DNA of 64,000 nt from an uncultured delta proteobacterium (lineage in GTDB: Bacteria > Desulfobacterota > Binatia > Binatales > Binataceae): contig CAWHTV010000004.1 of NCBI GenBank assembly GCA_963832395.1, forward strand, positions 200,999-264,998, in the 5' to 3' direction. Below the pieces are notes generated by a model. That model ran no database searches, was not told where the DNA came from, and saw only the letters and a program-made list of their open reading frames with translations. Below are positions 1,996-59,614 of the stretch, one piece after another (positions within the stretch are counted from its first letter, which is position 1; each line of letters starts with the position of its first letter). A program made the position numbers and the translations under genes.

Positions 1996-3196
1996 ATGGA
2001 TTTCACGCTGTCGCCCAAAGTCGTGCAGTTGCAAAAGCGCGTCTCCGACTTCATGAACGAGCACGTCTACCCGATCGAGAAGCGGGTCGAGGACGAGATG
2101 AACGTCCACGGCAAGGAGCATACCGAGCCCGAAATTCTCAAAGAGGTCCGCAAGAAGGCCAAGGCCGAGGGGCTGTGGAACCTCTTCATGCCCGACGAGC
2201 ACTACGGCAAGGGACTGAAGGTGGCCGAGTACGCGCCGCTGTCCGAATTGATGGGCCGCAGCCCGATCGGCTCGCGCGCGTTCAACTGCATGGCGCCCGA
2301 CACCGGCAACATGGAAATCCTCGCCGACTTCGGCAACGCGGAGCAAAAGAAGCGCTGGCTCGAGCCCTGCCTGGAGGGCACGATGCGCACCTGCTACTCG
2401 ATGACCGAGCCGGAGACCGCAGGCTCCGACCCGACCCAACTTGCGACGCGCGCGGTCCGCGACGGCGACGACTATGTAATCAACGGCCACAAGTGGTTCA
2501 CCTCGGGCGCGGTCGGCGCGTCGTTCGCGATCGCGATGGTGGTGACCGACCCCAATACCGAGCCGCATCGCCGCGCGAGCCAGATAATCGTCCCGACCGA
2601 CGCGCCGGGATTCAAACTGGTGCGTGCGGTGTCGGTGATGGGCCATGCGGGCGGCGGCGGCCATTGCGAAATCATCTACAAGGATTGCCGCGTGCCGGTG
2701 ACCAACCTGCTCGGCGAGGAGGGCGGCGGCTTCGCGATCGCGCAGGCGCGCCTGGGCCCCGGCCGAATCCATCACTGCATGCGCATGATCGGCGTGGCCG
2801 AGCGGGCGCTGGAGCTGATGTGCAAGCGGGCGGCGACGCGCTTTACCCACGGCAGCCTGCTCGCGGACAAGGCCAACGTTCAGCAATGGATCGCGGACTC
2901 GCGGATCGAGATCGACGCGCACGCGCCTGATGGTGATGCATGCGGCGTGGAAAATCGATACCGCCGGCAAGCGCGAGGCGCGCCAGGAGATCGCGGAAAT
3001 CAAGGTGCAGGCCGCCAACATGGTGATGAACGTGCTGGACCGCGCGATCCAGCTTCACGGCGCGTTGGGGATGACCGACGACACGCCGATCGCCCGCTTC
3101 TGGCGCGAGCAGCGCGCGATGCGGATCGTCGACGGCCCCGACGAAGTCCATCGGATGCAGATTTCGCGGCGCGAAGTACGCCGCTGGCAGCAATAG
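1996..3196 (+). CDS. Acyl-CoA dehydrogenase (frame break near 2920)
   Basis: ATG 1996 follows GAGGA. YSMTEPETAGSDP and the C-terminal DGPDEVHR are ACAD hallmarks. The body is in frame 1 and the last 88 aa in frame 2 (ORF 2930..3196), with one extra base in GACGCGCACG/CGCCTG. The 812-aa track ORF 1942..4380 is read-through in a wrong frame. Confidence 0.85.
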
Positions 3197-6133: not shown

Positions 6134-8430
6134 ATGGCAGCGACGACAGAAGGAACCCATCAATTCCGGGTGATCGGAACGCGCCCGATCCGTCACGACG
6201 GCGTCGAGAAGGTGACCGGGGCGGCCAGGTACGGAGCCGACTACGCGTTTCCGGGGATGCTCTTTGGCAGGGTGCTCCGCAGCCCGCACGCCCACGCGAT
6301 TATCAAATCGATCAAGACCGACAAGGCGCTCAAGCTGCCCGGGGTCAAGGCGATAGTGACGGCGGCCGACCTTCCGGAACTGCCCGACCGGATCGAGCAG
6401 GGCGGTGAGCTGCCGATCAACCTCCATCATCTGTCGTGCAACATCCTCGCGCGCGGCAAAGTGATGTACGACGGCCATGCGGTCGCCGCCGTCGCCGCGA
6501 CCAGCCCGCATATCGCCGAGGAGGCGCTGCGCCTGATCGAGGTCGACTACGAGGTGCTGCCGCCGGTGATGACGGTCGAGGACGCGATGGCGCCGGCCGC
6601 GCCGATCCTGCTGCCCGCGCTGCGCAACAAGGAAGACGGCCCCGACAAGCAGACCAACGTCGCCGCCCACGTCCAGTTCAAGCGCGGCGACGTCAAGGAA
6701 GGCTTCAGCAAGGCCGACTTCGTGGTCGAGCGCAAATTCAAGACCGCGATGGTGCATCAGGGGTATATCGAGCCGCACAACGCAGTCGGCATCTACAACG
6801 CCGACGGCCACGCCACGATCTATTGCTCGACCCAGGGCAGCTTCGTCGTGCGCTCGCTCAGCGCCGCGGTGCTCGGGATTCCCGAGGGCAAAATCCGCGT
6901 GGTGCCGGCCGAGATCGGCGGCGGCTTCGGCGGCAAGACCACGGTTTACCTCGAGCCGCTGTCGGTGCTGCTCTCGCAGAAGACCGGCCATCCGGTGAAG
7001 ATGACGATGAACCGCGCGGAGGTGTTGCGCGCCAGCGGCCCGACCTCCGGCGGGACGATCCGCTGCAAGATGGGCGCGACCAAGGACGGCAAGATCGTCG
7101 CGGCCGAAGTCTGGATGGCGTACGAGGCGGGCGGCTTCCCCGGCTCGCCGGTGCCGATGGGCGCGATGTGCATCGTGGCGCCCTACAACATCCCCAACAT
7201 CCTCGTCGACGCGTACGACGTGGTCGTCAACCGGCCCAAGACCGCGGCCTACCGCGCGCCGGGCGCGACCAACGCCGCGTTTGCCTCCGAGACCATCGTC
7301 AATGAACTCGCCGAGAAATGCGGCATCGACCAATGCGAATTCCGCATCCTGAACGGCGCTCACGAGGGCACGCCGCAGACCGCCGGGCCCCCGTACAAGC
7401 GCATCGGGATGATCGAAACGGTCGAGGCGATCAAGAACAGCCCGCACTACAAGTCCAAGCTCGAGGGCAAAAACCGCGGACGCGGCGTGGCCACCGGCTT
7501 CTGGTTCAACATCGGCTTCCAGTCCTCGGCGATGGTCAATATCCACAACGACGGCACCGCCAGCGTGGTGACCGGCTCGGTCGATATCGGCGGGTCGCGC
7601 GCCTCGATGGCGATAATCACGGCGGAGGTGCTCGGCCTGGATGTCAACGACGTCCGCCCGCTCGATCGCCGACACCGATTCGATCGGCTATACCGACGTG
7701 ACCGGCGGCAGCCGCACCACCGTCGCCACCGGGCTTGCGGTCTTCGAGGCGGCACAGGACGCCGTGCGCCAACTCAAGGAGCGCGCCGCCAAGCTGTGGG
7801 AGAAAAAGCCCGAGGAGGTCGAATTCAGCAACGGCCTGCTCAGCTCGAAGAGCAACGGCGTCAAGCCGATGTCAATCAAGGAGATCGTTCCGCGCCTCGG
7901 CCGCACCGGCGGTCCGATCACCGGACGCGCCACGGTCAACGCGCGCGCCGTCGGCCCGGCCTTCGCCTCGACCTGCGTCGACGTCGAAGTCGATCCGGAT
8001 ACCGGCAAGGTGACGATCCTGCGCGCCACGATCGCCCAGGATGCCGGCAAGGCGGTCCATCCGAGCTACGTCGAGGGCCAGATGCAGGGCGGCACCGTGC
8101 AGGGCATCGGCTGGGCGCTCAACGAGGAGTACTTCTACGACGCCAAGGGCGTGCTGCGTAACACCGGATTGCTGGACTACCGGATGCCGACCTGCCTCGA
8201 CCTGCCGATGATCGAAACCTGCATCGTCGAGGTTCCCGCGCCCGGCCATCCGATCGGCTCGCGCGGCGTGGGCGAGGTCTCGATCGTGCCGCCGCCGGCC
8301 GCAGTCGCCAACGCGATCGCTAACGCGGTCGGCGTGCGGATGACCGAGCTGCCGATGTCGCCGGGACGCGTGCTCAAGGCGATCCTGCACAAGGAAGGCG
8401 CCGCAGCAGGCCTCGGCCGCAGCCGACTAA
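6134..8430 (+). CDS. Xanthine dehydrogenase family molybdopterin-binding large subunit, copy 1 (frame break near 7663, probable second one near the 3' end)
   Basis: GGGFGGK and AAYRAPG motifs. Continues in ORF 7641..8537 (IADTDSIGYTDVTGGSR). The track ORF runs to 8537 through a terminator hairpin and a repeat element; TAA 8428-8430 in the +1 frame is the more likely stop. Confidence 0.8.
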
Positions 8431-8482: not shown

Positions 8483-8492
8483 GTGCCAGATG

Positions 8493-8535
8493 GTCATCCT
8501 GAGCGAAGCGAGTCCGCGAGCGGAGTCGCGAGCAT
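8493..8535 (+). repeat. GTCATCCTGAGCG repeat family, copy A (single arm)
   Basis: GTCATCCTGAGCGAAGCGAGTCCGCGAGC matches the reverse complement of 26521-26548. Confidence 0.7.
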
Positions 8536-17151: not shown

Positions 17152-19641
17152 ATGGCGGACTCCACCAACGGCACTTCCAACGGTTCTGCGCAGAAAAGCT
17201 TTCGAGTCATCGGCACCCGGCCCATCCGGCACGACGGAATCGAAAAGGTCACCGGGCGAGCCAAATATGGCGCCGACTACTCATTCCCGGGAATGCTCTA
17301 CGGCAAGGTCCTGCGCAGCCCGCATGCGCACGCCCGGCTAATCGCGATTCGTACGGAAAAGGCGGCCGCGCTGCCCGGCGTGAAGGCGATAATCACCGGC
17401 GACGACCTTCCCGACATTCCCGGCACCACTGCGATGATGGGCGAACTCGTGGTCAACACGCATTACCTGTCGCTCAACGTGATGGCGCGGGGCAAGGTGC
17501 TGTACGACGGTCATGCGGTCGCCGCCGTCGCCGCCACCAGTCCGCATATCGCCGAGGAGGCTCTGCGCCTCATCGAGGTCGACTACGAACCGCTGCCTCC
17601 GGTGATGACCGCCGAGGCCGCGATGAAGCCGGATGCGCCGATCCTGCTGCCCGAGATTCGCCAGAAATTCATCGCCGGGCGCACTGATCCCGGATCGCCC
17701 GAGGGCCCCGACCAGCCGACCAACATCGCCGCGCACATCCAGTTCCAGCGCGGCGACCTCGAGGCCGGCTTTCGCGAGGCCGACTACGTCGTCGAACGCG
17801 AGTTCAAAACCGCCACCGTCCATCAGGGCTATATCGAGCCGCAGAACGCGGTCGCGCTCTACAGCTCAGACGGCCACGCAACCATCTACTGCTCGACCCA
17901 GGGCACCTTCAACGTGCGCACGCTCACAGCCACCGTGCTCAAAATGACCGAGGGCCAAATCAAAGTGGTGCCGGCGGAAATCGGTGGCGGCTTCGGCGGC
18001 AAAACCACCATCTATCTCGAACCGCTGGCCCTGTTGCTCGCGCAAAAGAGCGGACGGCCGGTCAAGATGACGATGAGCCGCGCCGAGGTGCTGCGCGCGA
18101 GCGGTCCGACTTCGGGAACCTGGATCAAGGGTAAGATGGGCGCGACGCGCGACGGCAAAATCACCGCCGCGCAGTTCTGGTTGGCTTACGAGGCGGGGGC
18201 TTATCCCGGCTCGCCGTTCGCGCCGGGCGCGATGTGCTGCACCGGCCCCTACAACATTCCCAACCTGCTTCTCGACTCGTACGACGTGGTGGTCAACCGG
18301 CCCAAGGTCGCGGCCTATCGCGCACCGGGATCGCCAAGCTCGGCGTTCGCCTGCGAATCGCTGCTCGACGAACTCGCGCTGCGCTGCGGAATGGATCCGC
18401 TCGAGATGCGTATCCTCAACGGCGCCCACGAGGGCACTCCGCAACCCGCCGGCCCACCATACAAACGCATCGGTTTCATCGAAACCTGCGAGGCGCTGAA
18501 GAACAGCGAGTATTACCGCTCGCCCCTGGTGGGCCCCAATCGCGGGCGCGGCGTCGCCGCCGGCTTCTGGTTCAACGGTGGCCTGCAATCGGCGGCGGCC
18601 GTCAACCTGCACAACGACGGCACGCTCAGCGTCGTGACCGGCTCGGTCGATATCGGCGGATCGCGCGCCGCGATGGCGATGGTGGCGGCGGAGGTGCTGG
18701 GCGTCGAGGCCGAAGACGTGCGCCCGATCGTCGCCGATACCGACTCGATCGGCCATACCGACGTGACCGGCGGCAGTCGTATCACGCTCGCCACCGGGAT
18801 GGCGGTCTACGAGGCGGCCGAAGACGTGGTGCGCCAGCTCAAGGAGCGCGCCGCCAAGCTGTGGGAGAAGAAACCCGAAGAAGTCGAGTTCAACAACGGG
18901 CGCCTGAGCGCGATCGGCAACGGCGTCAAGCCGATGACGATCAAGGAAATCACGCCGCGCCTTGCCCGCACCGGCGGCCCCATCACCGGCCGCGCGACGC
19001 TCAATGCCGGCGCGGTCGGCGCGGTCGGCAACGCGTTCGCGCTCACCTGCGTCGACGTCGAAGTCGATCCCGATACCGGCAAGGTGAAGATTCTGCGCTG
19101 CGCCGTCGCCCAGGATGTTGGCCGCGCTATCCATCCGTCCTACGTCGAAGGGCAATTGCAGGGCGCCACGGCGCAGGGGATCGGATGGGCGCTCAACGAG
19201 GAATACGTCTACGACGAACGCGGCATCATGCGTAACACCGGGCTGCTGGACTACCGGATGCCGACCTGCCTGGATCTGCCGATGATCGAGACGATTATCG
19301 TCGAAGTCCCCAACCCCAGCCATCCATTAGGCGTGCGCGGCGTGGGCGAAGTCTCGATCGTCTCGCCGATGGCGGCGGTCGCAAACGCCATCTATCGCGC
19401 CGTCGGGGTGCGGATGACCGAGTTGCCGATGTCACCGCCGAAACTGCTCAAGGCGATGCTGCAGCATCGGCGGTCCGGCGAGGAAGTTGCATACCGCGGC
19501 CGCCGACTGATACGAATCGCACGCCCAGATTCTGCTCTTAAAAGCGCTGTCTCGGACTCGATGGCTGGAGGCGCTGGAGCTCGTGCGCTGAAGCAGTCAA
19601 AAGCGAGTGTTGGTCAGTTTAGGCTGGAATTGCGGCAATAA
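17152..19641 (+). CDS. Xanthine dehydrogenase family molybdopterin-binding large subunit, copy 2 (orphan paralogue)
   Basis: ATG 17152 follows GAGG. Collinear with copy 1 over its whole length (FRVIGTRPIRHDG, GGGFGGK, AAYRAPG, ADTDSIGHTDVTGGSR). No frame break in the body. The 3' end is uncertain: an alternative stop TGA 19508-19510 sits in the +1 frame. Confidence 0.85.
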   Translation: MADSTNGTSNGSAQKSFRVIGTRPIRHDGIEKVTGRAKYGADYSFPGMLYGKVLRSPHAHARLIAIRTEKAAALPGVKAIITGDDLPDIPGTTAMMGELVVNTHYLSLNVMARGKVLYDGHAVAAVAATSPHIAEEALRLIEVDYEPLPPVMTAEAAMKPDAPILLPEIRQKFIAGRTDPGSPEGPDQPTNIAAHIQFQRGDLEAGFREADYVVEREFKTATVHQGYIEPQNAVALYSSDGHATIYCSTQGTFNVRTLTATVLKMTEGQIKVVPAEIGGGFGGKTTIYLEPLALLLAQKSGRPVKMTMSRAEVLRASGPTSGTWIKGKMGATRDGKITAAQFWLAYEAGAYPGSPFAPGAMCCTGPYNIPNLLLDSYDVVVNRPKVAAYRAPGSPSSAFACESLLDELALRCGMDPLEMRILNGAHEGTPQPAGPPYKRIGFIETCEALKNSEYYRSPLVGPNRGRGVAAGFWFNGGLQSAAAVNLHNDGTLSVVTGSVDIGGSRAAMAMVAAEVLGVEAEDVRPIVADTDSIGHTDVTGGSRITLATGMAVYEAAEDVVRQLKERAAKLWEKKPEEVEFNNGRLSAIGNGVKPMTIKEITPRLARTGGPITGRATLNAGAVGAVGNAFALTCVDVEVDPDTGKVKILRCAVAQDVGRAIHPSYVEGQLQGATAQGIGWALNEEYVYDERGIMRNTGLLDYRMPTCLDLPMIETIIVEVPNPSHPLGVRGVGEVSIVSPMAAVANAIYRAVGVRMTELPMSPPKLLKAMLQHRRSGEEVAYRGRRLIRIARPDSALKSAVSDSMAGGAGARALKQSKASVGQFRLELRQ

Positions 19642-26407: not shown

Positions 26408-26548
26408 TGTCATCCTGAGCGGCGGCTGCCGGAGCGAAGGATCTCGCGCGGTCCTCCGCGCGCTTTGTGCGATGAGCGACGGTAACACGCGCAAGAGCGC
26501 GCGAGATCCTTCGGCTCTGCTCGCGGACTCGCGTCGCTCAGGATGACA
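26408..26548. repeat. GTCATCCTGAGCG repeat family, copy B (complete palindromic unit of about 140 bp)
   Basis: Arms GTCATCCTGAGCG...GAAGGATCTCGCGCG at 26409-26450, with their reverse complement at 26498-26547. Confidence 0.8.
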
Positions 26549-26583
26549 AGCTCTTGGATGCAGCTTATTGGGGAGACCTCTCA

Positions 26584-47114: not shown

Positions 47115-48304
47115 CTACGGGTCGCGCGTGACCACGATTCCGCTGCCACGCATCATCGGCGAGCCATCGATCGCGCATACCGCCGCCGCACCGGGGACTT
47201 GCCGGCGCTCGGCGCGCCCGGTCACCTGGAACACCGCCTCGGCAATATGCCCCATCCCATGCAGCCTTCCTTCGCTCAGACTGCCGCCGAAAGTATTCAC
47301 CGGCAGTTCGCCCTCCAGCGCGATACGGCCGTCCTGGATGAACGCGTAGGCCTCGCCCCGCTTGCAGAAGCCGGCCGCCTCCAGCCAGTAGAGCGTGGAC
47401 GGGCTGAAGCCGTCGTACAACTGCGCGGCGTCCATGTCGGTGGGGCCGAGTCCCGCCGACGACCACAACTTGCCCGCGAGCGACTGCCCGTTGATGACGT
47501 AGTCGTCGAGCGTGTAGAAGAGCAGCGCTGCGCCGGCTCGACGGTGTTCTGGCCGTGGCCGGCGATGTAGGCCGGCGGATGGCGCAGATCGCGCGCGCGC
47601 TCGGCGCTGGTCATCACCAGCGCGACGCAGCCCTCGACCGGCACGTCGCAATCGAACAGGCAAAACGGCTCGGCGATCGGGCGCGCGGCGAAATAGTCCT
47701 CGCGGGTCATCGGCTTGGTGTAAAAGAACGCGCGCGGATTGAGGTTGGCGTTGCGCCGCGAGTTCACCACGAAGGTGCAGAGATGCTCGCGCGTGGCGCC
47801 GTACTGATGCATGTAGCGCCGCCACGCCATCGCGTGCGACTGGATCACGCCGACGCATCCAAAGGGCGCGAGGAACTGCGCGTCGCCCGCGGCACGCGCG
47901 CCGCTGAACGCTCCGTAGCTGCGCGGCTGATGCAGCGCGCGCCAGATGAGCACGTAGTCGCAGGCGCCGGCCATCAGCGCGTGCGCGCCCTCGATTACCG
48001 GGGCCGCGATCATCCCGGTCTCGATCTGCGCGTACCATCGCACGTCGGGCGCGAGCGCCAGATGGTTGATGATCCAGGCGACGCTCACGATATCGACGCC
48101 GTCGCGGGTGCCGGCGCCCAGAAACGGCGCCTCGGGATAAGTCGCAAGCCCGTCGATCTGCTGCGGGCTCAACCCCGCATCCGCGATCGCTTCACGGCAG
48201 GCGTCGAGCGCGAGCAATCCCAGCGGCCGCTTGGACTGGCGCACCAGCTCCGAGTAGCCGATCCCGACGATCGCGGTCTTGCCCTTGCCGTGCCACATCG
48301 CCAC
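47115..48304 (-). CDS. Thiolase-like (SCP-x/DitF type) acetyl-CoA acetyltransferase family protein (frame break near 47540)
   Basis: KTAIVGIGYSE, and the C-terminal NTFGGSLSEGRLHGMGHIAE. ORFs 47297..48304 and 47115..48038. Confidence 0.75.
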
Positions 48305-48739: not shown

Positions 48740-48872
48740 CGGATCATCTCTTTCGCGACGCCGCACAGGCCGGCGCGGCAATCACGCATCCATTTTTAGC
48801 AGGTTTTGCTATAGCAGGTTTGGCGGCGCGAGTGTCAGCGCCGCGCGACGCCGACCGTGTCGTCGCGGCACT

Positions 48873-50012
48873 CTACTGGTATCGTGCGGCCGCGACGGTC
48901 GCGCTCGAAGCGGGAAAATATCTGCGCCGCGCCCATAGCGCCACGTCGACCAGGCCGATCATCACCGGCACTTCGATTAGCGGCCCGATTACCGCGGCGA
49001 AGGCGGCGCCGCTGTCGATACCAAAGGTTGCGACCGCCACCGCGATCGCCAACTCAAAGTTGTTCGACGCGGCGGTGAACGACAGCGTGGCCGTTTGCGG
49101 ATAGGTGGCGCCGGCCTTGTAGCTCAGCATGAACGAGAGCCCGAACATGATCGCGAAATAGAGCAGCAGCGGGATCGCGATGCGCACCACGTCCAGCGGC
49201 AGCCGAACGATCGCCTCGCCCTTGATCGAAAACATCACCACGATCGTGAACAGCAGGAAGATCAGGGTCAGCGGGCTGATTTTCGGAACGAAATGTTCCC
49301 GATACCAGGCCTTACCTTTGAGCCCGACCAGAATTTTCCAGGTCGCCAGCCCCGCGACGAACGGTACGCCGAGATAAATGCCGACGCTTTCGGCGATGTC
49401 GCCGATCGTCACGTGAACGATGGCTCCGCCAAGGCCGAGCCATCGCGGAATCACCGTCACGAAGACGAATGCGTAGATCGAAAAGAACAGCACCTGGAAG
49501 ATCGAGTTGAACGCCACCAGGCCCGCGCAATAGTCGTTGTCGCCGTCGGCGAGGTCGTTCCACACGACCACCATCGCGATGCATCGTGCCAGGCCGATCA
49601 TGATGAGTCCCACCATGTATTCCGGCCGGTCGCGCAAAAAGATAACTGCGAGCGCGAACATCAGGATCGGCCCGATGATCCAGTTCTGCACCAGTGAGAG
49701 GCCGAGAATCTTCCAGTTGCGGAAAACGTCGCCCAGTTCGTCGTAATTCACCTTCGCCAGCGGCGGGTACATCATCAGGATGAGCCCGGCGGCGATCGGG
49801 AGCGAAGTCGTGCCGATGCTGAGCCGGCCGAAAGCCGCCTTGATGCCGGGCCACGCGTAGCCCAGCGCCACGCCGGCCGCCATCGCAAGGAAGATCCACA
49901 GCGTGAGATAGCGGTCGAGGAGGGATAATCTCGGCAGTCTTGGCGTGTTCGCAAGCCTTAGAGTGGCGCTCAATTTCGTCGCTCCTATCCTCAGGGCAGG
50001 ATTGTTTAACAC
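48873..50012 (-). CDS. acr3: Arsenite efflux transporter ACR3
   Basis: Intact. [32 protein letters not shown] and [11 protein letters not shown] are ACR3 hallmarks. Confidence 0.92.
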
Positions 50013-50055
50013 TGCCGTAACACGCGAGCGCTGGTAAGAGCTTTCAGATTATTCA

Positions 50056-50079
50056 ATGATTCCATATATATGGAATCAT
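50056..50079. promoter_or_regulatory. 24-bp perfect palindrome in the acr3 / arsR-arsC divergent control region (candidate ArsR operator)
   Basis: ATGATTCCATAT|ATATGGAATCAT. Its last two bases are the first two of ATG 50078. Confidence 0.55.
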
Positions 50080-50905
50080 GACAAAGGAAACCGTCATCGC
50101 CGCATTGGCCGCCCTCGCGCAGGAGACTCGCCTGGACATCTTCCGGGCGCTGGTCGAGAGAGGTTCGGAAGGCATGCCAGCCGGAGAAATTGGTGAGCGC
50201 CTGAACTTGCCTTCGCCTACGCTCTCATTCCATCTCAACCAGCTCAGGCATACCGGCCTCGTGACGTCGCGCCGGCAGAGCAGGCGGATCATCTACGGCG
50301 CCAAGTTCCGCACGATGAACAGCCTGATCGAATATCTGACCGAGAATTGCTCCGCGGGTCCGGCAGACAATGCGATTCACGGTCGTCCAAAAAGCGTAGC
50401 GTCCGGGCGCGAGTTCAACGTTCTTTTTCTGTGCACGAACAACTCGGCCCGCAGCATCATGGCGGAATGCGCGATGAATCGATGGGGCGCCGACAGGTTT
50501 CACGCTTTCAGCGCCGGCAGCAAGCCGCGCGGCGCCGTACATCCGATCACGCTCGGGGCGCTGAATGAATTGAAATACGAGACCGGGAACTTGCGGAGCA
50601 AGGACTGGAACGAGTTCGCCCAGCCGGACAGCCCGCCGCTCGATTTCGTTTTCACTCTCTGCGACCGCGCCGCCGCCGAGATTTGTCCGACCTGGCCAGG
50701 CCAGCCGATAAGAACGCATTGGGGCGTGCAGGATCCGGTTGCGGTCGCCGGTACGAGTGGCGCTACACGAAAGGCATTCGTCAAGGTCTACACCGAACTG
50801 GAGCAACGAATCAGGATCTTCACCGCTCTTCCGATCGAAACGCTCGAGCGTTTCGCCCTTGAACGCTGGGTTGCGGAAATCGGCAAATTGAACCTGGCGG
50901 CGTGA
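50078..50905 (+). CDS. ArsR-family repressor fused to LMW-PTP-type arsenate reductase (ArsR-ArsC fusion)
   Basis: N-terminal winged HTH ([10 protein letters not shown]...[16 protein letters not shown]). C-terminal [16 protein letters not shown] carries the CX5R P-loop. Intact 275 aa. Confidence 0.85.
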
Positions 50906-50922
50906 TGGAGACAGGGGCAGCC

Positions 50923-51760
50923 ATGCCGGTGCGGTTGGGAATAAACGGCTTCGGACGCATGGGGCGCCTGGCGCTGCGCGCCGCATTCGATAACCCCCAA
51001 ATTAAGATCGTCCATATCAACGAGTTGAAAGGCGGTCCCGAGACCGCGGCTCACCTGCTCGAATTCGATAGCGTGCATGGTCGATGGCGCGTGCCGATAA
51101 CCCCGGAAGCGCACGGACTCAGGATAAACGGCGATCGCATCGCGTACAGCGACTTCGACGCTCCGGGCAAAGTGCCGTGGGACCAAGCCGGGGTCGAAAT
51201 CGTTCTCGAGTGTTCGGGCAAGTTCCTTACTCCGGAGGAATTGGAACCGTATTTCGAGCGGGGCGTGCGCAAAGTCGTCGTGGCGGCGCCGGTCAAGCAG
51301 GGCGCGCTCAACGTCGTGATGGGCGTCAACGATCAGTTGTACGACCCTGAGTTGCACCACATAGTCACCGCCGCCTCGTGCACCACCAATTGCCTGGCGC
51401 CCGTGGTCAAAGTCATCCAGCAAACGCTCGGCATCCGCCACGGCGTCATCACCACTATCCACGACGTGACCAATACCCAAACGATCGTGGACCTGCCGCA
51501 CAAGGATCTGCGGCGGGCGCGATCCGCGCTGATGTCGCTGGTGCCTACCACGACCGGGTCGGCTACCGCCATCGGCCTCATCTATCCGGAGCTGCAAGGA
51601 AAACTTAACGGCATAGCGGTTCGTGTCCCTCTGCTAAACGCCTCGCTGACCGACTGCGTCTTCGAGGTCGCGCGATCGACTACCGCAGTGGAGGTCAACA
51701 AATGCTTGCGGGCGGCGGCGGAGGGGGAACTCCGCGGCATCCTGGGTTTCGAGGAACGTC
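50923..51760 (+). pseudogene. gap: Glyceraldehyde-3-phosphate dehydrogenase (ars-island type), 5' part, interrupted by IS21-family element
   Basis: [15 protein letters not shown], active site SCTTNCLAP. Reading stops being GAPDH-like exactly at 51760 (..GFEER). Confidence 0.9.
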
Positions 51761-52023
51761 TGTTCGGCGTCAACTATTTTTGCCGATAAGCGACAAGTAT
51801 TTTTGCCGGTGGTCGCCAGGTTAACTGGTCCTTTTGTCCGATAAGATCGAGGGCGGTCACTGCGATACTCAGATTTGGCCCACCCCTGGTTGAGTTCCTC
51901 CTTTTCTGAAGAGAGATTGTAATTGTCTGGTCTTTTCGTTGGTGCGCGTTAGGAGACGCGCGCAGCGCGCACCTTGCGCGATCAGCGTTACTAACGCGCT
52001 CCACCAGCATCGACTTCATCGAA

Positions 52024-52815
52024 TCAACCTGGGCTCGCATCGACGGCTTCGCCGGGCTGGCCAGCATCGGTGCGACGACGCTTCCGAGTCCGGTAGCTGG
52101 GAACATTGAACTCCAGGATGGTCGCGTGATGGACCAGCCGATCGATCGCGGCCGCGGTCGCCATAGGGTCCTTGAAGATCCGTTCCCAGTCGCTGAACAC
52201 CAGGTTACTGGTGACCAGCATGGAGCGCCGCTCGTAGCGTTCCGCGATCAGAGTGAACAGGACTTCCGCCTCTTCGGGGCTCTGTTTGACGTAGCCAATA
52301 TCATCCAGGATCAACAGCTCGATCGAATCGAGCCGCCGCAGCTTTTGCGGCAGCATCAGATCGCGCTTGGCGGCGAGCAGTTCCTGCACCAGCTGATAGG
52401 CGGGACGGAACAGCACCGAATGGCCCAACTCAATGAGCGCGTTGCCGATCGCGCAGCCGGCGTGGCTCTTGCCCACTCCGGGCAGACCAAAGGCCAGCGC
52501 GTTCTCGGCCCGTTCCAGGAACTCGCCGCGTGCCAACTCTCGCAGCTTGCGCATCAGCGGCGCGGGCAGCGTGCCCGCGTCCAGTGTCTCGAAGGTTTTG
52601 CCGGGTGGAATCTGCGCGGCGCGGCGCAGGCGCGTGATCTTGCGCTGCTCGCGCGCTTCGGCCTCCATCTCCAGTACTTCCAGAACTAGCAGCAGCGCGT
52701 CGCGATGGCCGGCGTTCTCCAGGCGCGGACCTAGTTCCGGTGCCGCGGTGCTGAGATTGAAACCGGCGAGCAACTGGGTAGTGCGTTCGACGACATCGAT
52801 CTGAGCGGCTTTCAT
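52024..52815 (-). CDS. istB: IS21 helper ATPase IstB
   Basis: Walker A GLPGVGKSH, Walker B LLILDDIG. ATGA overlap with istA. Confidence 0.93.
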   Translation of the reverse strand: MKAAQIDVVERTTQLLAGFNLSTAAPELGPRLENAGHRDALLLVLEVLEMEAEAREQRKITRLRRAAQIPPGKTFETLDAGTLPAPLMRKLRELARGEFLERAENALAFGLPGVGKSHAGCAIGNALIELGHSVLFRPAYQLVQELLAAKRDLMLPQKLRRLDSIELLILDDIGYVKQSPEEAEVLFTLIAERYERRSMLVTSNLVFSDWERIFKDPMATAAAIDRLVHHATILEFNVPSYRTRKRRRTDAGQPGEAVDASPG

Positions 52816-54296
52816 GATGCTGCTTCCGCCAGCAACGCGTCGTAGACCTTCAGGTCCGGCGCGCCGATCATGACCGTCGGAACGATCGGCCGCTCAGGTC
52901 TGACCGTATGACGAACCCGGTCCGCGTCGAATCGCTCGCCGCCATCCAGCAGCTCGTCCAGGGCCTGCTCCACCAGCTGCTCGCCGCTAACCGCCGCCAG
53001 GTAAAGGATTCGCACGTACTCCGGATCGGCCCGCTCGCTGTGGAAGCCGCGCAGCGCATCGTAGGTGCGTCGGAAGACGAGACTCGGGAACAACTCCTCG
53101 CGCCAGCGGTAGCGAGCAAAGGCGCCGGGCTTCTTCACCAGCGACCAGATCACGTGATGATAATCGATCCGCGCCCAGCGCTGCCCGCGCCGCCGCGGCA
53201 GCCGCTCCACCAGCTTACCCGCGTAGTACACCTCGAGTTGATCGTGATGGAGATGGACTCGGACTCGTTCGCCGATTAATCGCGCCGGAACCGAATAGGT
53301 GTGGTTAACTACCCGGATCGTGCTCCAGCGGCGGACCATGACTGTGAACGTGGTATATGCGGGCAACGCGATCACCGGCAGCGGGCGCAGATGTCCTCGC
53401 TCCTCGACCAGTTTCTCGCCGCGCAGCGCGTTGTGTTCGCGCTCGATCACTTCGCGAACCCAGCGCTGATACTCGTCCACTGATGGAAAGTCGTGGCTGC
53501 CGCGCAGCACCAGCATCTGCGCCAAGATCGACTTGGTCCGCCGATGCGCCTGCTCGACCACCCCATTCTCGTGGGCTTTGCGCGGGAAGATTCGGGTGGA
53601 CTTCAGTTCGTAATGATCCAACAGACTCTGGTAACGCCGGGTGAGGGCTCGGCCACCGCTGACCGGCAGTTCATGCGTCGCCGCCGATAGATTGTCAGAG
53701 CGCAACACTTCTACCACGCCGCCCAGCCGCCAAAGCGCCTCCTGCACCCCGAGCAGCAGCGCTTCGTAGCTTTCGCTCAACGCCACCGTCGGCCAGCGCC
53801 AGCCGCTGAAGCTCAATACCAACTCAAAGAGCAGATGCTCGAACGGTGCACCACCGATCGTCACGCCGAGTTCGTCGCAGTTGGTGAAGTCGTAGGCCGC
53901 TTCGCGTCCGGGCAGATGTTCCTGGGGAAAGAACACTTCCTTGTCCGGCCCGTTCAACGCCCGCCATTGCCGGATCCGCCGCTGTAGCGTGCGCAACTGG
54001 CCTTCGCTGAACTGCCCCGGATGCCGGCGGTTCAATTCCGTCAACAGCGTGGTCGCCTCCAATACACCCTTGGAGTCTTCCGCCAACAGCGGCTCCACTT
54101 CGCTCTCAAATACCTCGGCAAACGGATCCTTCCGCGTTCGCCAGGTGTGCGGCTTATGCCGCTGCGACGGAAGCAATCCGTGCTCCCACTTGCGCGCGCT
54201 CCGCACGCTCATTCCAGCTGCTGCCGCCGACGCCTCCTGTGTCTTGCCTGCCATCCGTCTTCTCCGCAACACCCCGACCTGCGCGTCCTTCATCAT
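52812..54296 (-). CDS. istA: IS21 transposase IstA
   Basis: Intact 494 aa with an N-terminal HTH and a DDE core (DFTN..., LRSDNLSAA..., ENGVVEQ) typical of IstA. Confidence 0.92.
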   Translation of the reverse strand: MMKDAQVGVLRRRRMAGKTQEASAAAAGMSVRSARKWEHGLLPSQRHKPHTWRTRKDPFAEVFESEVEPLLAEDSKGVLEATTLLTELNRRHPGQFSEGQLRTLQRRIRQWRALNGPDKEVFFPQEHLPGREAAYDFTNCDELGVTIGGAPFEHLLFELVLSFSGWRWPTVALSESYEALLLGVQEALWRLGGVVEVLRSDNLSAATHELPVSGGRALTRRYQSLLDHYELKSTRIFPRKAHENGVVEQAHRRTKSILAQMLVLRGSHDFPSVDEYQRWVREVIEREHNALRGEKLVEERGHLRPLPVIALPAYTTFTVMVRRWSTIRVVNHTYSVPARLIGERVRVHLHHDQLEVYYAGKLVERLPRRRGQRWARIDYHHVIWSLVKKPGAFARYRWREELFPSLVFRRTYDALRGFHSERADPEYVRILYLAAVSGEQLVEQALDELLDGGERFDADRVRHTVRPERPIVPTVMIGAPDLKVYDALLAEAAS

Positions 54297-54398
54297 GGAG
54301 CTTCACCGCCTGGCTCCACTTCTCTCGCGCGCCGCCGGGACGGCCACAACCGGCAAATCTAATTGTCGTTAGCCGGCAAATTTAATTGTCGTTGATCA

Positions 54399-54605
54399 GA
54401 ACGTCCGCTGGTCTCAGTCGACTTCGTCAACGATCCACGATCCTCGATCGTCGACGGCCCTTCGACCATGGTCGTGGACGGCACGCAAGTCAAAATTCTG
54501 GCCTGGTACGACAACGAGTGGGGCTACGTAAACCGGCTGATCGAGTTGGCGACGAAGATCGCCGCGAGCCTGCCTTCGGTGCGGCGCAGCGCCGCGGCGG
54601 TGTAG
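54399..54605 (+). pseudogene. gap: Glyceraldehyde-3-phosphate dehydrogenase, 3' part
   Basis: Removing the IS and one GAACGTC copy restores [23 protein letters not shown]...[20 protein letters not shown], with stop TAG 54603-54605. Confidence 0.9.
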
Positions 54606-54609
54606 GACA

Positions 54610-55863
54610 GTGGAAGTGAGAAACGCCGGACGCAACTATGCCCTGGTCACCGGCGCCTACTGGGGTTTCACGCTCACCGACGGCGCTCTCAGAATGCTGG
54701 TGCTCTTGCACTTTGACCGGCTTGGGTACAGCGCGGTCGAGATTGCTTTCCTGTTCCTGTTCTACGAATTTTTCGGCATCGTCACGAACCTGCTCGGCGG
54801 CTGGATAGCCGCCCGTTCCGGATTGAAAGTCACCCTATACGGCGGGTTGCTTCTGCAAATCATCGCCTTGATCATGCTCGCCTTCCTGCAGCCGGCCTGG
54901 GCTCGACTGACCTCGGTCGCCTACGTCATGGCGGCACAGGCGCTCTCCGGAATCGCGAAAGACCTGACCAAGATGAGCGCCAAAAGCGCCATCAAGGTCG
55001 TGGTCCCGGAAGGCGAGGACGGCGCCCTCTTCAAATGGGTCGCTCGCCTCACCGGATCCAAGAATGCGCTCAAGGGAGCCGGCTTCTTCCTCGGGGCGGC
55101 GCTGCTGACCGCACTTGGATTTGCAGGGTCTCTCGTCGCGATGGCCGCGGGGCTCACGATCGTTCTGCTAGGCACCGTCGGCGCGCTTCCGAGCGGAATG
55201 GGAAAGGCCAAGTCGAAAGTCAAATTTACGACTTTGTTCTCGAAAAGCGTGGCGGTGAACTGGCTTTCGGCCGCGCGGCTGTTTTTGTTCTCTGCGCGCG
55301 ATGTCTGGTTCGTCGTCGGGCTGCCAGTGTTCCTCGCGTCGACGCTTGGATGGTCCTTCATGCAGGTCGGCGCGTTCGTCGCCGCCTGGTTTGTTGGCTA
55401 CGGCATGATCCAGGCAATCGTGCCAGAACTTCTCCGTCAATTGGGCGCGCGGCAGGGCGTGACCGGAGACACGGCCCGCCTCTGGGCTTTCGTGCTAACC
55501 GTTATTCCGATTGCTTTGGCATCCGCCCTTGAGCTTGGGGCACGGCCGGCCCCTGCACTCATGATCGGGCTAACGATCTTCATGGTCGTCTTTGCGATCA
55601 ATTCCGCCGTGCACTCGTACCTGATCCTCGCCTACTCGGATGACGATGAGGTGGCGACCAACGTGGGCTTCTATTACATGGCCAACGCCGGCGGCAGACT
55701 TTTAGGCACACTGTTATCCGGTGTGATTTTCGAAGCCTATGGATTTGTGGGCTGTCTGTTTGCCTCGGCCGCTCTGGTGCTTGCTGCCGGTGTTTTGTCC
55801 TTCAACTTGCCGAGTGCACGGGCAATTCCGCTTACGGTCAGACTGAAAGAGGCTGACGCCTAG
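54610..55863 (+). CDS. arsJ: Organoarsenical efflux MFS permease ArsJ
   Basis: RNYALVTGAYWGFTLTDGALRMLVLLHF and FLFYEFFGIVTNLLGGW. Lies immediately downstream of gap, as in known gap-arsJ pairs. Confidence 0.85.
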   Translation: MEVRNAGRNYALVTGAYWGFTLTDGALRMLVLLHFDRLGYSAVEIAFLFLFYEFFGIVTNLLGGWIAARSGLKVTLYGGLLLQIIALIMLAFLQPAWARLTSVAYVMAAQALSGIAKDLTKMSAKSAIKVVVPEGEDGALFKWVARLTGSKNALKGAGFFLGAALLTALGFAGSLVAMAAGLTIVLLGTVGALPSGMGKAKSKVKFTTLFSKSVAVNWLSAARLFLFSARDVWFVVGLPVFLASTLGWSFMQVGAFVAAWFVGYGMIQAIVPELLRQLGARQGVTGDTARLWAFVLTVIPIALASALELGARPAPALMIGLTIFMVVFAINSAVHSYLILAYSDDDEVATNVGFYYMANAGGRLLGTLLSGVIFEAYGFVGCLFASAALVLAAGVLSFNLPSARAIPLTVRLKEADA

Positions 55864-55955: not shown

Positions 55956-57113
55956 GTGAAGACCAAAGCCAGGTTGAAAATAGCATCCGCGGTTTTCCTG
56001 CTCACTCTATCGCTCGCATCAATGCCGATTGCTGGCGCACAAACGGATCGGCTAGCGATCAATGGCGATGGCTCGACCTTCGCCTATCCGATGTACAGCA
56101 AATGGATCGATGAATATCAGAAGGACAATCCAGCCGTGCATTTTACATACGTGTCGAACGGCTCGGGCGCAGGCATCCATGACGTTATGATGGGGACCGT
56201 CGACTTTGCCGGCACTGACGGTCCACTGAACAAGGTCCAGATGTTGGACTTCAGCACTCACCGGAACTGCGAGGTGCTGCACTTTCCGACCGCGATAGGA
56301 GCGGACGTGCCAATTTACAATGTGCCGGGAGTCACTGGAGGTCTCAATTTCACTCCACAGGCGCTCGCCGGCATATATCTGGGAAAAATCACCAAATGGA
56401 ACGATCCCGAGATCGCCAAACCCAATCCGAACGTATCGCTGCCCGCCAACGATATTGTGGTTGTCCGCCGGCAAGACGGAAGCGGGACCACCTACGTATG
56501 GACTGACTATCTAACTAAAGTCAGCGCGGACTGGCAGCAGCGCGTAGGGACGGGAGTTTCGGTCATATGGCCGGTCGGGCTCGCCGCCAAAGGCAACCAA
56601 GGCGTTGTGCAGGTGGTCGCACACACGCCTTATTCTATCGGCTATTCCGAGCTCACGTATGCGATTCGAAATCGATTGTCCTATGGGAGCGTCGCTAACC
56701 GCAGCGGCCAATTCATCAAGGCCAATCTTGCGAGCGTGACGGCCGCTGCCGCCGGAGCGGCGGACAAAATGCCTGAGGACTTTCGCATCTCGATTACCGA
56801 CGCGCCAGGTCAGGACGCCTATCCTATTTCGAGCTTCACCTGGATGCTGATCCCTTCTGTTATCGGTGACGCAGCAAAACGCACCGCGCTCATAGGATTT
56901 CTGCAGTGGGGTTTGACCAAGGGCCAGGATTACCTCGAACCTTTGTTCTATGCACGGATCCCCAGCGCAGTAATCGCCAAGGAAAAGAAGGCAATCGCCA
57001 AGATAAGGTCGTCCAGCGGAAGCGAAGCGGCTGCGAGACACGTCGAAAGTTGTTGCCACGCGAGACGCCATGACGCGATAGCGGCCTCGGCCATCAGAAT
57101 TGCCGGCTTATGA
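55956..57113 (+). CDS. pstS: PstS-family periplasmic phosphate(-like oxyanion)-binding protein
   Basis: Signal peptide, then GDGSTFAYPMYSKW, SNGSGAGI, RQDGSGTTYVW and PISSFTWMLIP. Confidence 0.8.
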   Translation: MKTKARLKIASAVFLLTLSLASMPIAGAQTDRLAINGDGSTFAYPMYSKWIDEYQKDNPAVHFTYVSNGSGAGIHDVMMGTVDFAGTDGPLNKVQMLDFSTHRNCEVLHFPTAIGADVPIYNVPGVTGGLNFTPQALAGIYLGKITKWNDPEIAKPNPNVSLPANDIVVVRRQDGSGTTYVWTDYLTKVSADWQQRVGTGVSVIWPVGLAAKGNQGVVQVVAHTPYSIGYSELTYAIRNRLSYGSVANRSGQFIKANLASVTAAAAGAADKMPEDFRISITDAPGQDAYPISSFTWMLIPSVIGDAAKRTALIGFLQWGLTKGQDYLEPLFYARIPSAVIAKEKKAIAKIRSSSGSEAAARHVESCCHARRHDAIAASAIRIAGL

Positions 57114-57214
57114 CTAAGACCGCGCTCGCTTGAAAGCCTTCCGGATCGTCGTCTCATGGCTTGCAGGCAGCGGCTTGATCTCTCCTATATTTCTATGATA
57201 CTAGAATTGTCGTA

Positions 57215-57632: not shown

Positions 57633-58450
57633 ATGGGAGACCAGTCTTCGATAAAAGAACAGGTCAGGGAAAATTACGCGCGTGCCGCTCGGCGCGTCTC
57701 GACCCAGGACGGCGGCTGCTGCGGCACCGCCGCCCCCTGCGGCAATCCGATCACCTCGAACCTTTACGCCGACAGCGAGACCGGGGCACTGCCGACGGAA
57801 GCGGTCGCCGCGTCGCTCGGATGCGGCAATCCAACCGCGCTCGCCGAGCTGAAAGCCGGGCGAGACAGTGCTCGACCTCGGCTCCGGCGGCGGCATCGAC
57901 GTGTTGCTCTCGGCGCGCCGCGTCGGCCCGGCGGGCAAGGCTTACGGACTCGACATGACCGACGAGATGCTCGCCCTGGCGCGCGAGAACCAGCGCAAGG
58001 CCGGCGCGCAGAATGTCGAGTTCCTGAAGGGCGAGATCGAAAACATCCCGCTGCCCGACAATTCGGTGGACGTGATCATCTCGAATTGCGTGATCAACCT
58101 CTCGGGCGACAAGGACCGCGTACTGGCCGAGGCGTTTCGCGTGCTGCGTCCCGGCGGCCGTTTCGCGGTCTCGGACGTGGTGGTGCGCGGCGAGGTCCCG
58201 GCCGCCATCCGCCGCAGCGTGCGAGCTATGGATCGGATGCGTCGCCGGAGCGCTGGAGGAATCCGAGTACCGGGCGAAGCTGAGCGGCGCCGGATTTGAA
58301 CAGGTCGAGGTCGAGCCGACCCGCATCTACCGCGCGGAAGATGCCACCGAGTTCTTCGCCCGCGCAAATCTCGACATCGAAAAAATCGCGCCGATGGTCG
58401 AGGGCAAATTCATGAGCGCCTTCGTCCGCGCCCGCAAACCAATCTCGTAG
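57633..58450 (+). CDS. arsM: Arsenite S-adenosylmethionine methyltransferase (frame breaks near 57860 and 58230)
   Basis: ATG after GGAGG. Cys-rich N-terminus ([11 protein letters not shown]), SAM motif [18 protein letters not shown], and the ending [11 protein letters not shown] in a third frame. Confidence 0.85.
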
Positions 58451-58571
58451 AGCTGCTTCGTCGCAACGTTCGAAAATATCGAGATGGCCTATACGACTCT
58501 TACTTTTGCGGTATGCCTCTTCGGGGAAATTCTCGTTGGCAATCCAGCATCGTGGCGAAGTGAACAGACTC

Positions 58572-59405
58572 ATGCAGAACAATTTCGAATCTGAGTTGTT
58601 GGTGACGACTGATTGGTTGACGGCACATCTTGACGATCTCGACATCCGCGTCGTTGATACGCGCAAGGGCGACGGCTACGACATAGCGCACATACCGCGC
58701 GCAGTCCGTTATCCGGCGCCCACCACCCCGTTCCTCAAGGAAAACGGTCGCGTGCCGAGCGCTGAGAGATTTGCCGCGCTCATGTCAGAGATGGGGATCG
58801 GCGACGCGAGGCTCGTGATCGCCTACGATGACGGCAACAATCTTTTCGCCGCGCGGTTGTGGTGGACGCTCAATTATTACGGGCATCGTCAGGTGAGGCT
58901 GCTCAATGGCGGTTGGGATTTGTGGGTTGCGGAAGGGCGCGCTGTCGCAGGTGCGCCCGCAAGTCCGAATCCCGCTAGCTTTACTCCAAAAATCGACGAG
59001 AGCTGGATCGCTGAATGGGAGCAGGTGCGCGCGGCGATCAAAAATCCGGCCTGCAGCATTCTCGATGTTCGCGCGGACAAGGAATGGACTGGCGAGGACC
59101 CGATGGGAACGAAGCGCGGCGGACACGTTCCAGGCGCAGTTCACTTGGACTGGCGCGAGACGATTGATCAAGCTAGCAAATGTTTCAAGCCCGAATCGGC
59201 GCTGCGACAGATGTTCGCGCAGGCAGGGCTCTCGCCGGATAAGGAAGTTATCACGTACTGCCAGGGTGGCATCCGGGCAGCCCACACCGCATTCGCCCTG
59301 CGGTTGGCCGGCTATGAACAGGTGCGAAACTACGAGCGTTCGTGGTACGAATGGGGCAACCGCGAGGACCTTCCAATCGAGTGCCCGCGAGGCACCGCGA
59401 AGTGA
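58572..59405 (+). CDS. Two-domain rhodanese sulfurtransferase
   Basis: [13 protein letters not shown], active-site loop [10 protein letters not shown]. Intact. Confidence 0.8.
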
Positions 59406-59614
59406 GGGGGCTGCTCTTCCTGTGCGTCCGGAACTCCGCCCGGAGCCAGATGGCGGAAGGGCTAGCGCGCAGGATTTTCGAAAGCGCCGTGCGCGTTCAA
59501 AGCGCCGGCTCGCGACCGGCCGGAGTTGATTCGCTCGCGGTCGCTGCGATGGCGGAGATTGGGATCGACATTTCCGCTCAGACATCGGTGCGGAGGAGAA
59601 TCGCTGCGCGTTGA
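59402..59614 (+). pseudogene. arsC: LMW-PTP-type arsenate reductase remnant (N-terminal ~70 codons only)
   Basis: GTG overlaps the rhodanese stop. [17 protein letters not shown] carries the CX5R loop. Similarity ends where repeat copy D begins. Confidence 0.6.

Follow-up and report, generated by a model that had tools for sequence, protein, structure and literature searches.

A complete IS21-family insertion sequence within the ArsJ-associated GAPDH gene of an uncultured soil bacterium, probably of the Binataceae

In the 64-kb stretch of DNA analysed here (the window), the GAPDH gene (gap) of an arsRC–gap–arsJ operon lies in two pieces, and the 2.6 kb between them carries a transposase gene and its helper. 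This arrangement raises the question of whether gap is split by nature, wrongly assembled or broken by a mobile element and, in the last case, how recent the event is and what it means for the operon. Almost certainly, the ArsJ-associated GAPDH gene was interrupted at codon 286/287 by the transposition of a single, complete IS21-family element that looks competent to transpose (Table 1). The event is a transposon insertion of an ordinary kind, if an exceptionally clean one.

Table 1. Features of the interrupted operon and of the inserted element (window coordinates)
Feature	Position	Strand	Remarks
ArsR–ArsC fusion gene arsRC (HTH + low-molecular-weight phosphatase)	50078–50905	+	Pfam HTH_20, LMWPc; NCBIfam ArsR/SmtB and arsenate reductase models
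ArsJ-associated GAPDH gene, 5' fragment	50902–51760	+	codons 1–286 plus 1 nt
Target-site duplication, left copy GAACGTC	51754–51760		single copy in empty sites
IS21-family insertion sequence, complete	51761–54398	-	2,638 bp; boundaries set independently by copies in other contexts
IRR, terminal inverted repeat, istB side	51761–51817		holds repeats R1 (51768–51786) and R2 (51791–51809)
istB, AAA+ helper ATPase, 263 aa	52024–52815	-	PF01695 178.9 bits; NF038214 226.3 bits (cutoff 200)
istA, DDE transposase, 494 aa	52812–54296	-	NF033546 190.8 bits (cutoff 160); PF22483
IRL, terminal inverted repeat, istA side	54342–54398		holds repeats L1 (54373–54391) and L2 (54350–54368)
Target-site duplication, right copy GAACGTC	54399–54405		
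GAPDH gene, 3' fragment	54406–54605	+	from the final 2 nt of codon 287 to TAG 54603–54605; WYDNEWGY motif included
arsJ, MFS permease, intact	54610–55863	+	NF033734 568.9 bits (cutoff 400)

The insertion site and its empty alleles

The operon begins with arsRC, whose stop codon overlaps the gap start (GTGA), and ends with arsJ, which begins 4–10 nt past the gap stop and shows zero indels within the gene relative to the related contig L019; the same gene order is found in the related contigs L017–L020. In the interrupted allele, the gap frame runs for nine codons into the element (LFGVNYFCR) before a TAA at 51787–51789. The resulting product of 295 aa, for which an exact look-up returned no record and no other carrier of the filled site, covers positions 1–275 of 323 in NF033735 and 1–123 of 158 in Gp_dh_C. 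The GAPDH similarity ends at 51760 and resumes at 54406, in agreement with a reading made earlier from the sequence alone (the sequence-only reading), all of whose positions and sequence statements were borne out. That reading also held that removing the element with one GAACGTC copy restores the gap frame, and in-silico excision of 51761–54398 plus one heptamer indeed yields an open frame of 352 aa, which matches NF033735 over its full length (profile 1–323 of 323) with 559.3 bits (cutoff 450).

The frequency of the GAACGTC heptamer is ordinary, with 12 copies in the window versus 11.6 expected. Its two copies here abut both element tips exactly, with a chance of about 6e-5 for one given position pair; the duplication is therefore meaningful because of this exact contact and not because the heptamer is rare. 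Both the duplication and the boundaries are independently borne out by the comparison with empty sites. Three related contigs have an uninterrupted gap gene, L017 with 97.5% nucleotide identity and L019 and L020 with 89–90%. The window flanks overlap on each of them by exactly 7 bp, which identifies a true empty site, and GAACGTC is present once in each (L017 2416–2422, L019 8832–8838 and L020 3338–3344); the reconstructed empty-site sequence is GGTTTCGAGGAACGTCCGCTGGTC. These alleles confirm the precise insertion with a 7-bp duplication that the sequence-only reading had proposed. Between the restored gap gene and the L017 allele there are 21 synonymous and 8 non-synonymous codon differences and no indels.

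Ends and genes of the element

Because istA and istB are both encoded on the minus strand, the element runs antiparallel to gap and arsJ. The tips are TG...CA, with TGTTCGG... at one end and ...TTGATCA at the other. The inverted repeats are imperfect, matching at 34 of 48 positions and, when extended to 57 bp, at 41 of 57; among 200,000 pairs of 57-mers drawn at random from the window, none was as good, and the best reached 36. Each end contains the 19-nt repeat CGACAAnTAnnTTTGCCGG twice, with 23-bp spacing. The repeats include the TTTGCCG(G) box, are kept in relatives and are putative IstA-binding sequences. The TG...CA ends with imperfect inverted repeats of about 48 bp, and the box occurring twice at each end, had already been recognized; the former now extend further and the latter is part of the longer repeat, located at four sites. 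The istA ATG follows IRL at a distance of 102 bp, and a non-coding spacer of 263 bp, which varies among relatives, separates istB from IRR. A TTGACG hexamer is positioned in IRR 8 nt from the tip, facing outward on the minus strand. Reading by eye, we found no convincing −10 partner for it in IRL and could discern no (IS21)2-type junction promoter, and there is no tandem copy of the element in the window. A scan with an E. coli-type consensus, which may not suit Binatota, gave no sigma-70 promoter for istA; terminator-like hits showed no significant enrichment (10 versus 6.0 ± 2.6 expected), and an Rfam search of the window returned zero matches.

The NF033546 match of IstA spans profile positions 2–293 of 294, and the PF22483 match corresponds to a Mu-transposase-like C-terminal β-barrel. 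An alternative start at Met15 (54254), chosen by gene callers on identical DNA elsewhere, would give a protein of 480 aa. The DDE triad D136/D201/E248 aligns with D124/D187/E233 of IS5376 IstA (8q4d/8b4h), the catalytic triad of which is named in PMC10122671, in a weak pairwise alignment (E about 1e-6). Pfam rve gives no match to IstA even at E ≤ 10, and the predicted DDE assignment draws on the NCBIfam model together with the weak IS5376 alignment. IstB matches the structure of IS5376 IstB (8q3w) with an E value of 9e-39, and its Walker A and Walker B motifs are GLPGVGKSH (residue 110) and LILDD (residue 168), respectively. Both genes are uninterrupted and the istA stop overlaps the istB start in ATGA, as noted earlier, and the proposed IS21 family membership is upheld by IstA and IstB scores above the curated NCBI cutoffs and by the conserved DDE triad and Walker motifs.

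In its overall organization the element resembles the IS21 family, including the prototype IS21 of plasmid R68 and IS5376 of Geobacillus stearothermophilus: a DDE transposase gene is followed by an AAA+ ATPase gene with overlapping stop and start codons, the tips are TG...CA, the size is about 2.6 kb, and the catalytic and Walker motifs are conserved. Target duplications of IS21-family elements measure 4–8 bp, a range that includes the 7 bp seen here. In prototypical members each terminal inverted repeat consists of two direct repeats, L1/L2 and R1/R2 (PMC10122671), and the same architecture is present in this element. There are also differences: the stagger in IS5376 is 5 bp (PMC10122671) in place of 7 bp, IS5376 IstA has about 400 aa compared with 494 aa, the extra C-terminal region being PF27155 Y4rL_C in precomputed Pfam annotations, and the spacer between istB and IRR distinguishes the element from both IS21 and IS5376. 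By analogy with these two elements, an IstA tetramer would bind the paired repeats of both ends (L1/L2 and R1/R2) and synapse the ends, and IstA would cleave at the terminal CA-3'. With IstB on the target DNA, the ends would be joined at staggered positions 7 bp apart, and repair of the stagger would generate the GAACGTC duplication.

Copies elsewhere and the age of the insertion

Among the closest relatives are unnamed IS21-family elements annotated in MAGs of Binataceae, Bryobacteraceae, Acidobacteriaceae and 'Deltaproteobacteria' (for example P0057, P0042 and L002–L011), whose IstA proteins are 78–96% identical. They have the same terminal repeat architecture and a near-identical 26-nt tip. 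They represent other copies or iso-forms located elsewhere, and none lies in a gap gene; at several copies in MAG MFD05377.bin.1.214 another element abuts or replaces the outer repeats. Plasmid IS21 elements of cultured Paraburkholderia, Mycetohabitans and Janthinobacterium align with IstA over its full length and share the istA/istB annotation, with an IstA identity of only about 43–44% and a DNA identity, over parts, that reaches no more than about 72%. Such values are far under the thresholds for the same IS. The plasmid collection thus contains no close relative (DNA search at most ~72% and without a full-length match, protein at most 44%), and the element is therefore probably an unnamed member of the family.

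Near-identical copies were found in other assemblies. The copy in L001 (748–3385) is identical at 2637 of 2638 positions, that in L069 at 2638 of 2638, and that in L068 is 99.85% identical. These 99.85–100% copies have the same boundaries and lie in at least four differing flank contexts from independent assemblies. In a survey of flanking duplications, L007, a relative that is 82% identical and lies on a MAG contig of 510 kb, has the 7-bp duplication ATGGCCT; none was found at L001, L006, L009, L010 or L068, and the ends of L012 are ambiguous. We tentatively attribute the duplication-free copies in the survey to chimeric flanks on short contigs; for L001 and L068, the lack of a duplication is compatible both with chimerism introduced by metagenome assembly of a repeated element and with recombination among its copies at a later time. 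An exact match to the 26-nt IRL tip occurs in 47 contigs of JGI metagenomes, with differing flanks. Nearly all of these are ~65%-identical relatives or tip-only matches, the best being L058 (85.6%) and L066 (95% over 141 bp), and the tip scan added no other near-identical copy of full length with paired flanks. Since copies of 99.85–100% identity share their boundaries and differ in their flanks, the element has apparently been active recently. The insertion itself is young: the duplication is perfect, the IS genes are intact, near-identical copies occur elsewhere and the gap halves are free of disabling mutations. The earlier description of the insertion as recent and probably still mobile is supported in so far as sequence comparison can indicate it.

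With these data the other explanations can be weighed. That gap is naturally split or differently organized in this lineage, with the intervening DNA as a resident sequence, has practically no chance of being correct: it is refuted by the uninterrupted alleles of L017, L019 and L020 with their single heptamer, the restored protein fits the full NF033735 model, and all 120 relatives among the matches listed are intact single proteins of about 313–361 aa (closest listed 98% identical). Misassembly is another candidate, a repeated IS having been placed by error at the gap locus of a metagenome-assembled genome. Across metagenomes the element is multicopy, and it clearly interrupts or misleads assembly: many relatives occupy IS-sized contigs of 2.5–3 kb, and L001 and L068 lack duplications. 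Several 1-bp insertions in other genes of the window, among them arsM, the thiolase gene and the ChsH2-like gene, also show that its base-level accuracy is imperfect. However, a misjoin would not produce an exact 7-bp target duplication flanking the element, nor would it keep the gap halves contiguous to the nucleotide, and we reject such an artefact, in view of the duplication, as very improbable.

Two further readings accept the element and differ on its nature. An old, fixed relic that has lost its mobility would agree with the undetected sigma-70-type istA promoter and with the single copy in the window, but the perfect duplication, intact ORFs and conserved catalytic residues, the near-identical copies in other flanks, the undecayed state of the disrupted gap gene and the absence of the insertion from a strain of 97.5% identity make a relic improbable. 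Finally, a composite transposon or a larger mobile element could carry the ars genes and have this IS as one of its arms, as might be suggested by ars-related segments of the window that are missing from relatives (acr3 at 48848–50061, pstS at 56005–57169 and, at 58441–59597, rhodanese with a truncated arsC). Against this, the window contains neither a further IS copy nor a matching end, the duplication directly flanks the single element, and the flanking genes for an RRM protein, thiolase and asd are syntenic with relatives; a composite structure was thus rejected and has only a very slight likelihood. A single, complete and recently transposed IS21-family element remains our reading of the locus.

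Probable consequences for the arsenic operon

The insertion cuts GAPDH after residue 286, and the protein, having lost its last 66 residues, is probably inactive. Expression of arsJ is probably lowered by polarity, because transcription from the operon promoter has to read through 2.6 kb of IS sequence that is antisense and untranslated; a scan with the E. coli-type consensus, which may not suit Binatota, gave no sigma-70-like plus-strand promoter between the IS and arsJ. It is reasonable to infer from this arrangement both the loss of the GAPDH–ArsJ route and the polar effect. A similar situation exists in transposon mutants of the var operon of V. cholerae (arsR–gapdh–...–arsJ, with a single upstream promoter), where promoter-proximal insertions have a documented polar effect on downstream genes (PMC9601151). 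Those disruptions are laboratory mutants, whereas the present one is natural and occurs in an uncultured lineage. In V. cholerae the GAPDH mutant is milder than the arsJ mutant, and the housekeeping Gap is probably still able to produce 1-arseno-3-phosphoglycerate (PMC9601151). The genes of the reduction and efflux route, ArsC and Acr3, are uninterrupted in the window.

The main value of the result lies in annotation; biologically the event is ordinary and leaves current concepts unchallenged. The ends, repeats and 7-bp duplication are now defined to the nucleotide for an unnamed IS21 element common in uncultured soil bacteria, which helps to annotate MAGs of Binatota and Acidobacteriota, whose assemblies the element fragments, and gap at this locus should be read as a recent pseudogene and not as a novel short GAPDH. 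The natural gap::IS allele and its matched empty allele also provide a pair for separating the shares of the dedicated GAPDH and of arsJ in arsenate tolerance outside model organisms. More tentatively, the element may represent an undescribed and currently active IS21 subgroup that circulates across uncultured soil phyla (Binatota, Acidobacteriota and Myxococcota-like MAGs), and the hit in gap could be a step in an ongoing decay of the arsenic-resistance locus, where arsM likewise has two frameshifts and a truncated arsC is found nearby, provided that these are not errors of assembly; we regard this reading as a whole as doubtful. The subgroup would be marked by its IstA (about 494 aa, with a Y4rL_C-type tail), the 7-bp duplication and the highly conserved 26-nt tip.

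The term 'arsenic island', which the sequence-only reading applied to the surroundings, proved to be loose. The core ars cluster occupies a conserved chromosomal position in Binataceae relatives, and strain-specific additions are present.

Boundaries, genes and family of the element

Judged from its sequence, the insertion in gap, the ArsJ-associated GAPDH gene, is a bona fide member of the IS21 family, and all of the defining features that can be checked in silico are present. The boundaries, GAACGTC duplication, end repeats and uninterrupted overlapping reading frames proposed in the sequence-only reading proved exact to the base when window positions 51000–55200 were read and coordinates were extracted by script; the insertion is correctly identified, cleanly documented and biologically ordinary. 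GAACGTC is not rare in the window (12 occurrences, 11.6 expected) and is significant only because both tips of the element abut it exactly. The repeat finder lists no inverted repeat in the region longer than that formed by the ends (I1), and each end contains a direct repeat spaced by 23 bp (D9, D10). Ungapped, the ends match at 34/48 and 41/57 positions; among 200,000 random pairs of 57-mers from the window none reached 41 matches (maximum 36). The TTTGCCG box is the 3′ portion of a 19-nt repeat within the ends. In prototypical IS21 members, two repeats make up each terminal repeat (L1/L2 on the left, R1/R2 on the right) and the terminus is CA (PMC10122671); the architecture found here is the same. 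The 26-nt tip on the istA side matches exactly in 47 JGI metagenome contigs and is a strongly conserved functional site, since most of the elements bearing it are only ~65% identical overall.

Features of the element, its copies and the surrounding locus (window positions unless a contig is named; IRL and IRR, istA-side and istB-side terminal repeats)
Feature	Location	Strand	Description
Target duplication	51754–51760; 54399–54405		GAACGTC; sequence reading and scripted extraction
Element	51761–54398		2,638 bp; first bases TGTTCGG, last bases TTGATCA
L1, L2	IRL		19-nt repeats CGACAATTAAATTTGCCGG, CGACAATTAGATTTGCCGG
R1, R2	IRR		19-nt repeats CGTCAACTATTTTTGCCGA, CGACAAGTATTTTTGCCGG
istA	54296..52812	minus	Uninterrupted ORF, 494 aa
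istB	52815..52024	minus	Uninterrupted ORF, 263 aa
Interrupted GAPDH ORF	50902–51789		Family match ends after ...GFEER
Extra segment vs L019, L020	48848–50061		acr3
Extra segment vs L019, L020	56005–57169		PstS phosphate-binding protein gene, between arsJ and arsR
Extra segment vs L019, L020	58441–59597		Rhodanese/3-mercaptopyruvate sulfurtransferase-like gene and truncated arsC
Copy in L001	748–3385		ENA ERZ25039548, 29-kb contig; 2637/2638 identity, identical boundaries
Copy in L069			Logan SRR28023748; 2638/2638 identity
Copy in L068			GCA_052915705.1; 99.85% identity
Copies in L070, L071			Identical, partial
Foreign sequence at ends of related elements	L002 2899–2921; L003 5387–5409; L004 5512–5534; L011 5515–5537		CGCATTGACTCAGGACTTTTGTTACCGAGTCGCCGG...

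The two ORFs overlap by ATGA and together fill the element. IstA passes NF033546, the curated NCBI model for IS21 transposases (190.8 bits, cutoff 160), and contains the Mu-transposase C-terminal barrel PF22483; the Pfam rve model gave no match to it, even at E ≤ 10. In a pairwise alignment (E about 1e-6), Asp136, Asp201 and Glu248 align with Asp124, Asp187 and Glu233 of IS5376 IstA (8q4d/8b4h), its catalytic residues (PMC10122671). IstB matches PF01695 (IstB_IS21, 178.9 bits), NF038214 (226.3 bits, cutoff 200) and the IS5376 IstB structure (E 9e-39), with GLPGVGKSH as Walker A and LILDD as Walker B. In the plasmid collection there was no close relative, with identity reaching no more than 44% for IstA and, over parts, about 72% for DNA; the relatives at 78–96% identity are unnamed elements in MAGs.

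Two possible in-frame starts of istA, separated by 14 codons, lie at 54296 (494 aa) and 54254 (480 aa). The inner one has GGAG 9 nt upstream and was chosen by gene callers on the identical DNA of L068 and L069. Two istA products, a transposase and a cointegrase, are described for IS21, of which the paired starts are reminiscent.

Disruption of gap and its expected effect

The interrupted gap frame runs for nine codons inside the element to TAA at 51787–51789 and covers only positions 1–275 of the ArsJ-associated GAPDH model NF033735. Removing the element and one GAACGTC in silico gives a 352-aa protein that matches the whole profile (559 bits, 1–323/323), which bears out the claim that excision restores an uninterrupted frame. 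Among the matches listed in a protein search, the restored GAPDH has only intact relatives of about 313–361 aa; the best of them reaches 98% identity, and Candidatus Binataceae MAGs account for many of the annotations. We aligned the DNA of these relatives' loci to the window. Window 50001–51760 and 54399–55167 correspond to 663–2422 and 2416–3184 of the related contig L017, and the flanks overlap on this uninterrupted allele by exactly 7 bp, GAACGTC. The same overlap occurs in the related contigs L019 (8832–8838) and L020 (3338–3344). The empty-site allele sought as a check is thus found in three relatives, and this exact overlap on uninterrupted alleles excludes a naturally split gap gene.

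In translation, the interrupted GAPDH retains the SCTTNC active-site region and lacks the last 66 residues, the WYDNEWGY motif among them; it is expected to be inactive. The relatives have arsRC, gap and arsJ closely packed in one direction, and the element is antiparallel to the operon. Rho-type polarity on arsJ is likely, because operon transcripts would need to traverse 2.6 kb of untranslated antisense element. A scan for a sigma-70-like promoter toward arsJ found none, using a consensus that may not apply to this phylum. In the V. cholerae var operon, where transposon insertions are documented to have polar effects on downstream genes, a GAPDH mutant has a milder phenotype than an arsJ mutant, since the housekeeping Gap probably still makes 1-arseno-3-phosphoglycerate (PMC9601151); thus, the phenotype here would hinge mostly on arsJ silencing. 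The window retains uninterrupted genes for the ArsR–ArsC fusion and Acr3, and arsenate tolerance need not collapse.

Probable recent activity and copies elsewhere

Exact-protein look-up with IstA and IstB located further copies, whose flanks all differ from each other and from the window. Compared with L017, the split gap has no indels and 21 synonymous versus 8 non-synonymous codon differences, showing no decay, and a strain without the insertion is only 2.5% divergent. A relative 82% identical to the element, on the 510-kb MAG contig L007, has a perfect 7-bp duplication, ATGGCCT. Together with the conserved tip, the 99.85–100% copies, undecayed gap halves, insertion-free strain and L007 duplication support recent activity, in agreement with the sequence-only reading. 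The weak point is that no target duplication was seen around the copies in L001 and L068. Chimeric flanks are the likely cause, because many relatives occupy element-sized contigs.

The left flank in L001 (1–747) codes for the N-terminal part of another transposase/integrase-like protein (...GRPRVSREVRHLIVRMAGDNFLWGA), whose frame is not resumed on the right; either contig chimerism or nested insertion accompanied by rearrangement might explain this. In four related copies of MAG MFD05377.bin.1.214, a common foreign sequence abuts or takes the place of at least the outer terminal repeat; it continues into another transposase-like ORF (MATRRELKDAIRQRYQ...) and looks like a second element repeatedly landing in or beside these ends.

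The arsenic locus and other features of the window

The intact arsJ (NF033734, 569 bits) lies directly downstream of gap. Upstream, the stop of the ArsR–ArsC fusion gene overlaps the gap start, and acr3 lies divergently upstream of that fusion gene. The closest GAPDH relatives and syntenic contigs are from Binataceae (phylum Binatota). The RRM-protein, thiolase and asd genes on its flanks are in synteny with relatives, so by gene order the locus is an ars cluster conserved on the chromosome, with additions specific to the strain, and not a clearly delimited island. The truncated LMW-phosphatase arsC (59342–59614) covers only profile positions 2–59 of 129. A perfect palindrome, TTCCATATATATGGAA, at about 50055–50078 between the divergent acr3 and arsRC, immediately 5′ of the arsRC start, is a plausible candidate ArsR operator. 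Compared with the window at 50001, the 97.5%-identical relative L017 has 134 additional bp (529–662), at the acr3 5′ end or upstream of it.

Compared with the intact 270-aa gene of L019, arsM (about 57633–58440) has frame-shifting single-base insertions at 57855 and 58221; either another arsenic gene has been inactivated here or the assembly is wrong at these bases. The thiolase gene (1-bp insertions at 47526 and 47538) and a ChsH2-like gene (48385, 48426 and 48668) also carry isolated 1-bp insertions, and no deletions, in their coding regions relative to L019, and both are broken or scrambled. This pattern suggests that sequencing or assembly of the source introduced erroneous insertions, and it cautions against calling pseudogenes from the window. 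Elsewhere, a ~1.9-kb segment is present in two direct copies 11 kb apart (6404–8244 and 17440–19318, 80–83% identical), presumably paralogous genes forming a pair or a cluster. Lastly, an inverted 41-nt pair 18 kb apart (8488–8528 and 26512–26552, 88% complementary, …GTCATCCTGAGCGAAGCGAGTCCGCGAGCGGAG…) may be a dispersed short repeat.
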